From the NCBI GenBank assembly GCA_050947035.1, contig JBMNVW010000002.1, positions 4,820-68,819 on the forward strand: a DNA stretch of 64,000 bases, read 5' to 3'. The notes beneath the pieces were generated by a model. It made no database searches, was not told the DNA's origin, and saw only the letters and a list, made by a program, of their open reading frames with translations. Positions within the stretch are counted from its first letter, which is position 1; each line of letters begins with the position of its first letter. The position numbers and the translations under genes were made by a program. The stretch comes from Patescibacteria group bacterium (GTDB lineage Bacteria > Patescibacteriota > Microgenomatia > 0-14-0-10-38-17). Positions 20,183-24,249 of this stretch are shown one piece after another.

Positions 20183-21427
20183 CAAGTTTTATTTTAACAA
20201 AAATTTTCTTTTAGTAAAGCTTAATCTACTCTTTGTTAGAACAAGAATGTTTTTTTCTCTTTTTTTTAGTCATTTAGGAATTAAGTTTTTTCACATCCAA
20301 ATTCGATCGATTAGTACTGGTCAGCTGAATTCGTTGCCGAACTTACACTTCCAGCCTATCAACCAGGTAGTCTTCCTGGGATCTAAGACTCCTCATCTTG
20401 GAGTAGGCTTCCCGCTTGAGATGCTTTCAGCGGTTATCCATTACAAACGTAGCTACCCAGCTTGCCGCTGATGCGACAACTGGCCCACCAGAGGTTTGTC
20501 CATCCTGGTCCTCTCGTACTGAGGACAGATCTCCTCAAGAGTCAAAACGATTACTGCGGATAGAGACCGAGCTGTCTTACGACGCTCTGAACCCAGCTCA
20601 CGTAGGATTTTAATGGGCGAACAGACCAACCCTTGGAGACTTCTTCATCTCCAGGATATCCTGAGCCGACATCGAGGTCGCGAACTGGCCCGTAGATGTG
20701 TACTCTCGGGACCAACCACGCTGTTATCCCCGGGGTAGCTTTTATCCGTTAAGCCCTGGCTTCATCCATAGAAGCACAGGGGATCACTAAGACCTGCTTT
20801 CGCACCTGCTCGACCCGCCGGTCTTGCAGTCAAGCTGGCTTGTGCCTTTACACTTTCCTCCCGATTTCCATCCGGGATAAGCCAACCTTTGTGCGCTCGC
20901 GTTACTTTTTAGCAAGCGACTGCCCCAGTCAAACTACCCACCAGGCACTGTTCCTAAGTTCGTATCCAGAACTTCCAGGTTAGAACTGAATTTAATGAAG
21001 AGAGGTATTCCACTGGCGACCGAAGTCTCCCTCCTATTCTCGACAGTCATTAAATACAATTCAATGCCAAGTTGTAGTAAAGCTCCACGGGGTCTTTTTG
21101 TCCTGCAGTAATTAGGCCGCATCTTCACAGCCATTTCAATTTCGCCGAGTAGAGGTTTGTAGACAGTTGTTCGGTCGTTGGGCCTTTCATACAGGTCGGA
21201 ACTTACCCGACAAAGGACTTCGCTACCGTAGAACAGTTAGAGTTACTGCTGCCGTTCACCGGGGCTTCAATTCTCCGCCCGCATTTTTTCCGAAGAAAAA
21301 ATGAGAACAAAGTCATTTAACCTTCCGGCACTGGGCAGGCTTCAGCCCCTATACCTCCTCTTTTGGAGTTTGCAGAGACCTGTGTTTTTGGTAAACAGTC
21401 GCCGAACAATCTTTAGCTGAGACCCAT

Positions 21428-21631
21428 CTCGCCCACAGGACGAGAAAATCCTAAAGGATTAAACTCTAAATTCTAATTTCTAAAATCCAAACAATAACTA
21501 AATTCTAAATTCCAATGTTCCAAACAGATTATTTGTTTCGAATTTGGAATTTGGAAAATTAGGATTTGTTTGGGATTTCGGATTTCGGATTTAGAATTTT
21601 CTAGAATTTCCTTGTCCTATGGACAAGACAG
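21428..21631. repeat. IVS-like insertion (a) in the 23S. It is AT-rich, with ttctaaattccaa-type repeats, and is capped by the hairpins ctcgcccacaggacgag and cttgtcctatggacaag.
   Basis: It aligns at about 85-90% with the tRNA-Ala/23S spacer element at 24073-24249. Confidence 0.7.
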
Positions 21632-22177
21632 GCAGGGCATCTTGTGACCTTACGCCCAGCTTGTTTGCCGAGTTCCTTAAACCTCTTTCTCTCGCTCGCC
21701 TTGGTCTTCTCGACCTACCCACCTGTGTTGGTTCTTGGTACGATTTTTGTAAACTCTCACTGCGACACTTTTCTCGGAAGATAAAATCAGCTAATTGAAT
21801 CAAAAAAGATTCTCTTCATCGTAAGCTTGACATTAACGAACCGGCGGATTTGCCTACCAGTCCTGCCTTGCTACTTAAACGACAGCAACATCAATCGCTG
21901 CGCTAGCATTATCTGTCTCCGTCATGACCCAGTTAATAACGATTTTACAAAAGTACAGGAATATCAACCTGTTATCCATCCACTACCCAAGTAAAACTTG
22001 GCTCATGTTAGGATCGACTAACCCCCTGACGACGAACGTTGCAGGGGAAACCTTAGGTTTTCGGCGGTCTGGATTCTCACCAGACTATTTGCTACTCATG
22101 CCAGCATTCTCACTTCCGAACGCTCCAATAAACCTCACAGTTTATCTTCACCGCCTTCGGAACGCTCCCCTACCACC

Positions 22178-22316
22178 TCGCCCCCTGGGCGAGAAACTCC
22201 AAATATTCTAAATCCAAAATCCAAATAATATTGATCTGATAGGTCTTATTGGACCTATGTTTGTGGAAATTGAAAATTTGAAATTTGAAATTTCTTGTCC
22301 AAAAGACAAGGTCTGG
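22178..22316. repeat. IVS-like insertion (b) in the 23S, at the approximate helix-45 position. It contains the palindrome tctgataggtcttattggacc.
   Basis: AT-rich gaaatttgaaattt repeats end in the hairpin cttgtccaaaagacaag. Confidence 0.65.
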
Positions 22317-22945
22317 AACTTCGGTATGTAGCTTAATCCTCGATCATCTTCGGCGCTAACTTTCATCGGCCAGTGAGCTGTTACGCTTTCTTTAAAGGAT
22401 GGCTGCCTCTAAGCCAACCTCCTGGGTGTCTTTGAAAACTAACTACCTTAACAACTTAGCTACAATTTAGAGACCTTATTTGCCAGTCTGGGATGTTTCC
22501 CTCTCGCCTTATCAGTTTAGCCCGATAAGACTGACTCTCTTGTCTTGCCTTTGGTATTCGGAGTTTGATTGATATCAAGACCTTTAAGACCCTGAGACCA
22601 TTCAGTGCTCTACCCCCAAAGACATCTAAACAAGAGGCTATACCCATATATATTTCGGGGAGAACCAGCTATCACCAAGCTCGATTGGCATATTACCTCT
22701 AACCACAAGTCGTCCAAGCCTTTTGCAGCAGACATTGGTTCGGGCCTCCTCCTACCTCTCGGTAAAATTCACCCTGCTCATGGTTAGCTCGCCTGGTTTC
22801 GGGTCCCCCGCTCTTTGTTTATTCGGTTAAAAACCGAAAACGCCCTGTTAAGACTTGGTTTCCCTATGCCTCCACCATAAAAATGGCTTAAACAACACAA
22901 AGGACGAGGACTCGCTGGCTCATTCTTCAATAGGCACGGCATTAC

Positions 22946-23098
22946 CCGTTCTCCGAACGGGAAGCTCCAATTTCCAATTAAGCCAATTTCCAAACAAATT
23001 CCAAATAACAAATCTTCAAAATTGAAAATTAAAGCATTTTTAGAATTGATTGGTCATTGGTAATTGGTGGATTGAAAATTCCTGTTCGAAGAACAGGC
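22946..23098. repeat. IVS-like insertion (c) in the 23S, at the approximate helix-25 position.
   Basis: It begins with cccgttctccgaacggg, contains AT-rich ccaatttccaa repeats, and ends in the hairpin cctgttcgaagaacagg. Confidence 0.65.
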
Positions 23099-23392
23099 TT
23101 TGCCTGCTTGTTAGCAAACGGTTTCAGGTACTATTTCACTCCCCTTCCGGGGTGCTTTTCACCTTTCCCTCACGGTACTATTCACTATCGGTCGACAAAA
23201 GTATTTAGTCTTGGCTAATGGTTCAGCCGGATTCACACAAAGTATGTTCATTGTGTTACTTGGGAAAACTAGCTTGTTTTTATTTTGGTTTCGTATACCA
23301 GGCTTTCACTGTCTTTGGCCACCTATTCCAAAATGTTCTACTACCAAAACAAAAAACAAATATGCTTGCCTCCCACAACCCCCACCTCGTGC

Positions 23393-23563
23393 ACAGCACG
23401 AGAAAATCCCAAAATCCAAACTCCAAAATCCAAACAAATCCCAAAATGATCAAATATTCAAAATTCTAAAAAATAGTTAGAACATTGAGAATTTAGACAT
23501 TGGAAATTGATTGAAAATTGAAAATTGAAAATTGAAAATTCCTTGTGCTATGCACAAGACAGG
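23393..23563. repeat. IVS-like insertion (d) in the 23S 5' domain.
   Basis: It begins with ctcgtgcacagcacgagaaaatcc, contains (gaaaatt)n repeats, and ends in the hairpin cttgtgctatgcacaag. Confidence 0.65.
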
Positions 23564-23990
23564 TTTAGACTATTCCGATTTCGCTCACCGCTACTGACGG
23601 AATCGCTATTGCTTTCTCTTCCTCCGGGTACTAAGATGTTTCAATTCCCCGGGTAACCTCTATATGCGAAGCATATAGTCCGTCGTGTTGCCACGACAGG
23701 GGTTCCCCCATTCGGAAACCATCGGATCAACGGTTGCTTGGCACCTACCCGACGATATCGATCGCCTGCGACGTCCTTCCTCGGCTTTTGTCACCTAGGC
23801 ATCCACCGTTTGCGTTAATGGATGTGAAAAAACCTAATTCCTTGACTAATAATTAAAAAGAGCGAAAAAAAATTAACTTTTAAAAGTTAAAATTCTTGCT
23901 CTAACAAAGAATAGATTTTTTTCAAATCTATCTAATTACATGACAAAAACAATTTATCAAAGTGCTTTAGCTCTTTTTTAAAAACAGTGC

Positions 23991-24067
23991 TGGTGGAGCT
24001 AACCGGAATCGAACCGGTGACCTCCACATTGCAAATGTGGCGCTCTATCCAGCTGAGCTATAGCCCC
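23991..24067 (-). tRNA. tRNA-Ala (TGC).
   Basis: The reverse complement is GGGGCTATAGCTCAGCTGGATAGAGCGCCACATTTGCAATGTGGAGGTCACCGGTTCGATTCCGGTTAGCTCCACCA. It has the G3:U70 pair, anticodon TGC, and an encoded CCA. Confidence 0.85.
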
Positions 24068-24072
24068 TCATG

Positions 24073-24249
24073 CTCGCCCACAGGGCGAGAAATCCTAAAT
24101 TCTAATTTCTAAAATCCAAACAAGATCTAAATTCTAAATTCCAATGTTCCAAACAGATTATTTGTTTTAGGTTTGGAATTTGAAAAATTAAAATTTGTTT
24201 AGGATTTCGGGTTTTGAATTTAGGGTTTTCCTTATCCATAAGGATAAGG
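24073..24249. repeat. IVS-family element in the tRNA-Ala/23S spacer; paralogue of IVS (a).
   Basis: Its structure is gctcgcccacagggcgagaaatcctaaattctaatttctaaaatccaaaca...ccttatccataaggataagg. Confidence 0.7.

Follow-up and report, generated by a model that had tools for sequence, protein, structure and literature searches.

A family of palindrome-ended insertions at helix tips of the rRNA genes in a Patescibacteria bacterium and its relatives

We analysed a 64,000-nt stretch of DNA (hereafter the window) from a Patescibacteria group bacterium (assembly GCA_050947035.1, contig JBMNVW010000002.1, positions 4,820 to 68,819). It carries an rRNA operon whose 23S rRNA gene contains four inserts, with a fifth copy of the same element in the spacer between tRNA-Ile and tRNA-Ala. 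The elements sit at helix tips, form long strand-specific hairpins with a conserved base and a free interior, occupy their sites sporadically among relatives, have been copied between sites of one genome, and as full elements are confined to rRNA operons. We interpret them, at a probability of roughly 60%, as one lineage-specific family of palindromic intervening sequences (IVSs) on surface-helix tips in a Microgenomates-type clade of the candidate phyla radiation (CPR), a family that copies itself and would be excised by RNase III. An earlier reading of the window, made from the letters alone (the sequence-only reading), had proposed a 23S gene of about 3.5 kb with four inserts. This held: the gene is 3539 nt long compared with 2925 positions in the Rfam model, its insert-free core is 2879 nt, and reading in RNA sense, the Rfam alignment, and alignments to Escherichia coli 23S and one relative recognised the four inserts. 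Its coordinates agreed with ours within a few bases, except that one limit (23393) lies inside the second hairpin of element d, and the sites it predicted, near helices 25, 45, and 63 and in the 5' domain, were confirmed by alignment to E. coli as H25, H45, H63, and position ~272. It had misplaced the spacer copy between tRNA-Ala and 23S.

We delimited each element (a to d and the spacer copy; Table 1) from its first through its second terminal hairpin in RNA sense. All five copies are built alike. They open with one 17-nt palindromic hairpin, of consensus CTTGTNC-NNN-GNACAAG, and close with another, of consensus CTCGYNC-NNN-GNRCGAG. Between the two come, in order, a GAAATTTC-type linker, an arm rich in A, C, and U, the apical part, an arm rich in G and U, and a second linker that resembles GGAATTTC; GAAAUUUC is also linker sequence of the elements. 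The hairpin-capped architecture that the sequence-only reading had described is thus present, and it holds on both strands. The terminal loop of a surface helix is replaced by the insert, and the empty alleles of relatives are short capped hairpins. Element G+C content was 0.30–0.35 vs 0.48 in the rRNA core, and G made up 6–10% of the 5' halves vs 23–29% of the 3' halves. Minimum free energy (MFE) folds gave one long hairpin per copy with 45–78 pairs, 3–12 of them G-U, and RNA-sense z-scores against dinucleotide shuffles of -10.2, -8.4, -5.7, -9.2 (element c), and -9.8 for the five copies. The last value belongs to a wider stretch around element d (23389-23570), whose MFE as delimited was -68.4 kcal/mol. 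The opposite strands of the four 23S inserts folded clearly worse because each insert has 7–12 G-U pairs, which argues that the structure is selected in the transcript; the spacer copy, with three G-U pairs, folded about equally well on both strands (-60.6 vs -62.6 kcal/mol). None of the elements had an open reading frame (ORF).

Relatives were collected in two ways and are referred to below by locus number. The LytR-family gene adjoining 5S, used as a synteny query, returned three loci, only one of which (L002) had a full operon, and a metagenome-assembled genome of Ca. Shapirobacteria with 70% amino acid identity that is the nearest named relative. A metagenome scan for the lineage-typical 23S pattern added 68 further loci, for a total of 69 related 23S sequences. 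We scored occupancy as the distance between conserved anchors at eight 23S sites. From the numbering, we take E. coli ~272 to be H15, ~150-176 to be H10, and ~1353 to be H52. The record of L002 (CAYGEH010000001.1) is labelled 'uncultured Gammaproteobacteria', probably wrongly, as its operon, neighbouring gene order, and IVS family fit the CPR lineage.

Each of the eight 23S sites varied from empty to filled among the 69 relatives, and occupancy also varied at two 16S sites and in the spacer. The window had four of the eight 23S sites filled and L002 had extra sequence at all eight. L057, with a 23S of 3996 nt, had inserts of 157–235 nt at seven sites and a 19-nt extra hairpin at ~1111. Others were sparsely occupied: only ~272 was filled in L011 (1/6 measurable sites) and only H63 in L012 (1/7), and the filled sites were helix 10 and H63 in L015, H25 and H68 in L044, and helix 10 and ~1353 in L061. 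The ~272 site was empty (20–24 nt) or held a solo hairpin (31 nt) in most relatives, and most had 27–30 nt at H25. Even L052, at 98% core identity to the window, lacked the H45 insert, with an unrelated native tip in its place, and held a different family member at H63. H45 was also empty in L011, again with an unrelated native tip, and native unrelated H25 tips were found in L011, L045, and L061. Where a site is filled but has its native tip in close relatives, a true gain is implied. The element before tRNA-Ala was present at the same place in L002 and L011 and absent from L012 and L026, and the family reached distant lineages (L054 and L062, ~71–72% core identity). Conservation at the same sites throughout the lineage, which is expected of expansion segments and which the sequence-only reading had named as the finding that would count against it, was not observed.

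The elements are gained, lost, and overwritten, and within one genome entire elements, or interiors alone, are copied from one rRNA helix to another that is not homologous to it. The H25 element of L057 and its element in 16S helix 6 were 99% identical from the first through the second hairpin with unrelated flanks; in the same genome the H45 and H68 interiors were identical (139/139), and the ~272 and ~1353 interiors were almost identical. Interiors of H25 and H45 in L019 were 82% identical. In the window, the sequence-only reading had put insert a at about 85–90% identity to a segment of the internal transcribed spacer, and we obtained 88% over 141 nt between the element a interior and the spacer copy. 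Its view that the inserts are paralogues of one family is supported by the common termini and linkers as well as by these near-identical copies at different helices of one genome. The H63 insert of the window was overwritten recently, after its line parted from that of L052, with the spacer copy as donor, because the L011 spacer element is the orthologue of that in the window and the L052 H63 element resembles that of L057. In L057, the identity tract shared by H45 and H68 starts in the 3' half of the first hairpin and stops 4 nt into the second, and identity tracts that end inside terminal hairpins fit ectopic gene conversion.

Sites classed as empty in close relatives often held one hairpin of the family, such as CTTGTGC-TTT-GCACAAG at ~272 in L012, with similar solo hairpins at H45, H63, and H25. 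The window itself has one at the tip of 16S helix 6, where L057 has a full 186-nt element. The window H68 tip looks like an internally deleted remnant, and L002, L044, and L057 have full elements of 144–181 nt there. L026 had a 45-nt mini-element at H25. The elements therefore share with REP/REPIN sequences (repetitive extragenic palindromes and the hairpins formed by inverted pairs of them) an inverted palindrome pair that forms one hairpin, with singlets as remnants.

Table 1 Features of the window and its relatives. Positions are those of the window unless a locus is named; baselines are anchor distances of empty sites.
Feature	Position	Strand	Remarks
Element a	21428-21627	-	200 nt, helix 63 (H63), E. 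coli 1712-1735
Element a hairpins	first 21611-21627, second 21428-21444	-	
Element b	22177-22310	-	134 nt, helix 45 (H45), E. coli 1163-1185
Element b hairpins	first 22294-22310, second 22177-22193	-	
Element b apical module	22227-22258	-	ATAGGTCCAATAAGACCTATCAGATCAATATT; also present in intergenic DNA
Element c	22945-23097	-	153 nt, loop of helix 25 (H25), E. coli ~546
Element c hairpins	first 23081-23097, second 22945-22961	-	first CCTGTTCTTCGAACAGG, second CCCGTTCGGAGAACGGG
Element d	23386-23558	-	173 nt, after E. coli ~272, domain I hairpin = Rfam model 275-295
Element d hairpins	first 23542-23558, second 23386-23402	-	first CTTGTGCATAGCACAAG, second CTCGTGCTGTGCACGAG
Spacer copy	24073-24249	-	177 nt, tRNA-Ile/tRNA-Ala spacer, ending 5 nt upstream of tRNA-Ala
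Solo hairpin	27154-27170	-	CTCGTGCTATGCACGAG; 16S helix 6 tip; 16/17 bases match second hairpin of element d
H68 tip	21273-21312	-	E. coli ~1867; outer half-hairpin CTTTGTTC pairs with GGGCGGAG
L057 16S elements	1292-1477; 1561-1740 (L057)		helix 6; second site, probably helix 10; from terminal-module profiles
dnaN-downstream relative of interiors	61426-61559	+	nested GC hairpin 61521-61540; antisense to flanking genes
pgk-gap spacer relative of element c interior	51465-51591	+	antisense to flanking genes
Intergenic apical module	44780-44855	+	GGTCCAATAAGACCTATCAGAC; short AT-rich arms; repeat family D13
16S rRNA	27238 to ~25040	-	rRNA operon member
tRNA-Ile	24754-24680	-	rRNA operon member
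tRNA-Ala	24067-23991	-	rRNA operon member
23S rRNA gene	20289-23827	-	hosts the four inserts; Rfam LSU_rRNA_bacteria, 2294.8 bits, model 1-2925
5S rRNA	20181-20064	-	rRNA operon member
Helix 9/10 region			empty baseline ~53 nt
~272 site			empty baseline ~21 nt
H25 site			empty baseline ~29 nt
~1111 site			empty baseline ~13 nt
H45 site			empty baseline ~55 nt
~1353 site			empty baseline ~43 nt
H63 site			empty baseline ~72 nt
H68 tip			empty baseline ~40 nt

The terminal hairpins described by the sequence-only reading are present, and beyond that description the two of each element are also complementary to each other, loops included. In a set of 24 curated pairs of termini (five sites, 11 genomes), the terminal modules had 84% column identity; the interiors aligned at ~60%, near background for such composition. 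The local hairpins had 96.1% of cells paired and the long-range duplex from hairpin to hairpin 90.9%, and three 'loop' columns paired long-range in 24/24 sequences, with 8 and 15 double changes. Both pairings outscored all 500 column shuffles and partners slid by 1–3 columns, in percent paired and in covariation, and both are thus supported. Single genomes illustrate each: L002 carried a U-A to C-G compensation spanning the two terminal hairpins, and a T-A to A-T swap (A3-T15) in element a of L052 and L057 keeps the first hairpin and breaks the long-range pairing. The terminal 17-mers and linkers could form a basal duplex of ~25 bp in the precursor and then refold into two capped hairpins after cleavage. 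An A·C mismatch in the terminal duplex was conserved in 18/24 sequences.

Interiors of 45–235 nt were too variable for a full covariance model, and we searched with nhmmer profiles of the two terminal modules instead. Their matches in the window were to each of the four 23S inserts, to the spacer copy at its 3' end, and to nothing else; those in relatives were to the 23S sites and two 16S sites, with 16S copies in L011 and L002 as well as L057. No terminal-module match was found in the ~56 kb of non-rRNA DNA of the window or ~18 kb of carrier flanks, although a structural model could detect more diverged copies than these profiles. The tens to hundreds of intergenic copies typical of REP/REPIN sequences were thus not seen in this ~74 kb of non-rRNA DNA.

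When whole inserts were compared with the window by blastn, there were many weak matches, mostly to low-complexity AT repeats, and we accepted homology only for blocks with complex sequence. On this basis the element interiors are mosaics, with modules that also occur in intergenic repeats. Over 140 nt, the dnaN-downstream spacer aligned at 71% to the helix-10 insert of L061; a 47-nt block of this alignment is nearly identical and includes the hairpin at 61521-61540. The same GC hairpin is nested in the IVS arm of L061 and L054. The pgk-gap spacer matched element c at 68% over 143 nt with a near-identical 35-nt block. Both relatives formed strong folds only on the plus strand (-31.5 vs -18.8 kcal/mol for the dnaN-downstream element at 61428-61562, and -32.2 vs -7.5 kcal/mol for the pgk-gap spacer). 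Their antisense orientation, seen in two cases and so in too few for a statistical test, might mean that RNase III sites are avoided in mRNAs. The apical GGTCCAATAAGACCTATCAGA module of element b recurred at 44780-44855, 53134-53202, and 49696-49751, and in two L057 inserts. The sequence-only reading had described the inserts as copies of a dispersed element, which holds for interior modules and arms; complete elements were found only in rRNA operons within the DNA searched. It had also seen the terminal hairpin type at the end of dnaN. A hairpin does lie there, 23 nt past the dnaN stop, and shares interior modules with the family, but it gave no terminal-module match and showed no T-run terminator signature; its counterpart is the GC hairpin nested in the L061 and L054 interiors.

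In their position, complementary termini, sporadic occurrence, and lack of an intron core, the inserts match bacterial IVSs. No known RNA family was found in the inserts or the spacer copy with Rfam, where the only matches were sub-threshold microRNA-precursor hairpins; a group I or II intron, a riboswitch, and a known small RNA were each rejected as no Rfam match supported them. Archaeal-type introns have a bulge-helix-bulge motif at their boundaries, two 3-nt bulges separated by a 4-bp helix, and were rejected because the basal duplex of the folds is continuous, with nothing larger than a single mismatch in it. As in the 23S IVSs of Salmonella, Yersinia, Campylobacter, Leptospira, and Coxiella and the alphaproteobacterial helix-9 IVS, a stem-loop replaces the terminal loop of helices 25 or 45 or of a 5'-domain helix, and the inserts have complementary termini, are AT-rich relative to rRNA, are sporadic, and have no intron core. 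Those IVSs are known from one or two sites, whereas here one family is found in the spacer and at no fewer than eight sites of 23S and two of 16S, each terminus is a 17-nt palindrome, no ORF is present, and a single genome can carry nearly identical copies at helices that are not homologous, in one pair with one copy in 16S and the other in 23S. The rRNA operon here is also single-copy, which leaves no further operons to dilute the inserts.

Bacterial IVSs have been described at helices 9, 25, and 45, where a stem-loop replaces the tetraloop, as sporadic and expected RNase III substrates that are excised, after which the retained stem can hold the pieces together (PMC4990558). Short non-intron inserts at sites equivalent to H25 and H45 of CPR 23S genes were judged 'probably' IVSs, and CPR rRNA insertions were reported absent from transcripts (PMC11270868). 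From these two bodies of work we infer RNase III excision for the present family, and it is further supported by the spacer copy, since the same cassette there is part of a segment that is discarded. The sequence-only reading had proposed a 23S probably fragmented through RNase III-type excision, which would agree with all structural features and with the published cases. In the scheme we favour, the pre-rRNA would fold each element into a 45–78 bp hairpin, RNase III would cut each hairpin close to the conserved base, and the interior would be lost without religation. The window 23S would then function as about five pieces of ~269, 288, 634, 549, and 1139 nt, with the retained hairpin stubs holding the pieces together or capping their ends, and the spacer copy would be removed likewise during tRNA/rRNA maturation. 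Overwriting most likely proceeds by ectopic gene conversion between paralogues, new sites would be seeded by a separate step, and the interiors may be a harmless dumping ground that picks up small palindromic repeats present elsewhere in the genome.

Several points weigh against this interpretation. Excision, cleavage sites, and fragmentation are argued by analogy, and excision everywhere in L057 would leave ~8 23S and three 16S pieces, which is extreme for a bacterium, so that some of its copies could be retained. The strict palindromy of the hairpins and the A·C mismatch are not needed for an RNase III stem and hint at another constraint. True transposition is unproven, with neither a target-site duplication nor a transposase identified. 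The RNase III signature ERLEFLGD (rnc) was not found in six frames of the 64-kb window and all loci, a result that is uninformative for whole genomes. Similarity of the AT-rich low-complexity arms inflates alignment scores, and because the relatives are metagenome contigs, assembly could affect identical internal repeats; L017 independently reproduces part of L057.

The elements could also lack strict mobility altogether, being old, vertically inherited IVSs subject to differential loss and to concerted evolution by ectopic gene conversion among existing paralogues. We regard this as a tentative but real possibility. Identity tracts that end within the element, as between H45 and H68 of L057, are what conversion typically produces, the solo hairpins of sites that are empty apart from them resemble deletion footprints, and no target duplications or transposase were seen. 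Such a history has difficulty with the use of at least 11 sites (eight 23S, two 16S, and the spacer) in many combinations, with the gains implied by native tips at H45 and H25 of close relatives, and with the occurrence of the family in L054 and L062.

Rather unlikely, in our estimate, is a fully active mobile element specialised for rRNA, for which the operon would be a safe harbour since RNase III clears it from every transcript. Its termini would serve twice. As DNA hairpins they would be recognised by a trans-acting hairpin-specific enzyme (RAYT/IS200-like or other) that seeds helix tips; as RNA they would form first the basal RNase III duplex and then two local hairpins capping the new ends. 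The antisense intergenic relatives would reflect selection against RNase III sites in mRNAs. If true, this would explain much of the frequent short non-intron insertions in CPR rRNA.

That the inserts are expansion segments, retained in the mature 23S as long protruding helices of an unfragmented rRNA, we consider unlikely. The sites favour it: H25, H45, H63 (c, b, and a), and probably H15 (d) are classic expansion-segment helices, as is the ~1353 site, probably H52, which is empty in the window and filled in relatives. Eukaryotic and mycobacterial expansion segments share helices H15, H25, H45, H52, and H63 and the surface projection with the inserts, the helices are stable, a docking requirement of the ribosome could explain the conserved basal module, and L057 otherwise needs ~10 cleavage events. 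Expansion segments, however, are retained and lineage-conserved, whereas the inserts are sporadic even at 98% core identity, their interiors are unconstrained and overwritten wholesale, and the same cassette occurs in a transcribed spacer that is by definition discarded. Moreover, the characterised bacterial inserts of such size and composition at H25 and H45 are all excised (PMC4990558), and CPR insertions are reported to be removed from transcripts (PMC11270868).

Similarly improbable is that the elements are non-autonomous transposons of REPIN or miniature inverted-repeat transposable element (MITE) type, with terminal hairpins recognised by an enzyme in trans (e.g., a RAYT/IS200-type Y1 transposase) and an RNA fate that is incidental. 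Like MITEs they are short (134–200 nt) and non-coding, with terminal inverted repeats made of hairpins and linkers. REPINs consist of inverted pairs of short palindromes around a spacer that fold as one long hairpin, leave singlets as remnants, occur in many copies per genome, and are mobilised by RAYT. The present elements resemble them in having inverted-palindrome doublets and singlets, and two further observations fit: the changes in element a of L052 and L057 that keep local hairpins while breaking the long-range duplex, and the 99% whole-element copy between 16S helix 6 and 23S H25 with unrelated flanks. REPINs, by contrast, are intergenic and usually GC-rich with short spacers, whereas full elements here occur only in rRNA operons and a RAYT gene was not identified. 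No transposase was found among the 20 window ORFs scanned against Pfam, the window being annotated in part, and no flanking direct repeat was visible at the window sites or at the L057 16S helix 6/23S H25 pair, where a target duplication could be masked because the insertions replace helix tips. The marked G-U strand asymmetry points instead to selection on RNA. Correia elements, MITEs of Neisseria, are 100–160 bp long and non-coding, have terminal inverted repeats, and form transcript hairpins cleaved by RNase III. They resemble the present elements in size class, non-coding content, termini, and hairpin transcripts but are intergenic or in untranslated regions, number hundreds of copies, and have a TA target duplication, of which no equivalent was seen here; to our knowledge they have not been reported in rRNA helices. 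Finally, we give next to no credence to chance similarity of AT-rich low-complexity sequence: the arms do consist of AATTTC/AATTTT-type repeats and generic intergenic DNA of the window gives weak blastn matches, but this is refuted by 17-nt termini and linkers conserved across sites and genomes, by pairing statistics that beat shuffled and slid versions for both pairings, by profiles that match rRNA elements only, and by identities of 88–100% over 139–152 nt.

The insertions 23IS2 and 23IS4 of CPR 23S genes (Tsurumaki et al. 2024, PMC11270868) are comparable in host group, length (<200 bp), absence of an intron model or ORF, and H25/H45-equivalent sites, and the authors regard them as probable IVSs of RNase III type. 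That survey used a threshold of at least 100 bp and classified insertions by intron or ORF content, and, unlike the present analysis, its available portion reports no common termini, between-site paralogy, spacer or intergenic relatives, or intragenomic copying. In a limited search of literature available in part, we did not find a single family at 11 or more rRNA-operon sites, REPIN-like palindromic IVS termini with solo remnants, 99–100% identical copies in 16S and 23S helices, or interiors that recur in intergenic repeats.

The origin of bacterial rRNA IVSs has been debated since 1990, with transposon remnants, horizontal transfer, and selfish elements all proposed, and the cases described so far are of limited help, as their genomes carry one or two IVSs each and these are unrelated. 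The present clade has one family at up to ~10 rRNA sites per genome, with empty, solo-hairpin, miniature, and full alleles and copies 99–100% identical, so that gain, loss, and copying can be traced directly. Of the 'uncharacterised short insertions' that 82% of CPR 23S genes are reported to carry, our finding would identify a part, and it predicts highly fragmented rRNAs in the organisms that carry the family. It may also affect rRNA-based detection of CPR through amplicon length, probe sites, and measures of rRNA integrity.

The 3' end of the window 16S gene is split between AAGTCGTAA and CAAGGTA by an insertion of ~707 nt (25083-25789, minus strand) that contains an ORF (25119-25787) with a LAGLIDADG_3 domain (E 7.9e-12) and a sub-threshold group I intron match (25479-25801, 37.5 bits vs a cut-off of 50). 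Homing-endonuclease introns have been described for CPR 16S genes, and this insertion is probably one of that kind. On the minus strand, the final 17 nt of tRNA-Ile (GAGTCCAGGCGCGTGCA) are present in two copies (24681-24697 and 24546-24562), with CCA after the second copy only, and these enclose a 118-nt GC-rich segment (24563-24680) that partly repeats the T-arm. The arrangement resembles an insertion flanked by a target duplication of 17 nt, and the tRNA-Ile of L002 is normal. In the more distant relatives L035 and L021, much larger inserts occupy H45 and H63, respectively (anchor distances of 1171 and 857 nt), and may be introns or IVSs that bear an ORF. A GC hairpin of ~20 nt at ~1111 (CCCGCC-TTT-GGCGGG), between the L11 stalk and H45, is present in L002 (7301-7323), L057, and L017, absent from the window, and unrelated to the IVS family. 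The 5S genes of L001 (208-347) and L002 (9552-9689) are 138–140 nt long vs 118 nt in the window, and that of L002 has an extra small hairpin, GTTCGCCGTTTAGGCGGAC, that may be a 5S expansion.

The window has a further, separate palindromic repeat of small size: GCGCGAACTAAAGTTCGC followed by TACTTC occurs four times, at 6787, 12887, and 15334 on the plus strand and at 24468 on the minus strand in the 16S-23S spacer. Unusually long stretches of non-coding DNA at 10951-11747 (797 nt) and 15264-16205 (942 nt) are rich in GC hairpin repeats, found also at 34027-34075 and including GATTCTTCGGGAGTACCCTCAGAATGACG (four copies) and CGGGATTCTTCGTCCGCCGGCTGGCGGACTCAGAATGACG (three copies), and no Rfam family reached threshold in these stretches. 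Both L012 and L057 have the TCCGCCAGCTGGCGGA core of these repeats nested within IVS interiors as well. On the plus strand at 86-8242, a 2718-aa ORF with many internal GNVGIGT-type repeats (families D2, D3, D11, D17, and D18) probably encodes a giant surface protein.

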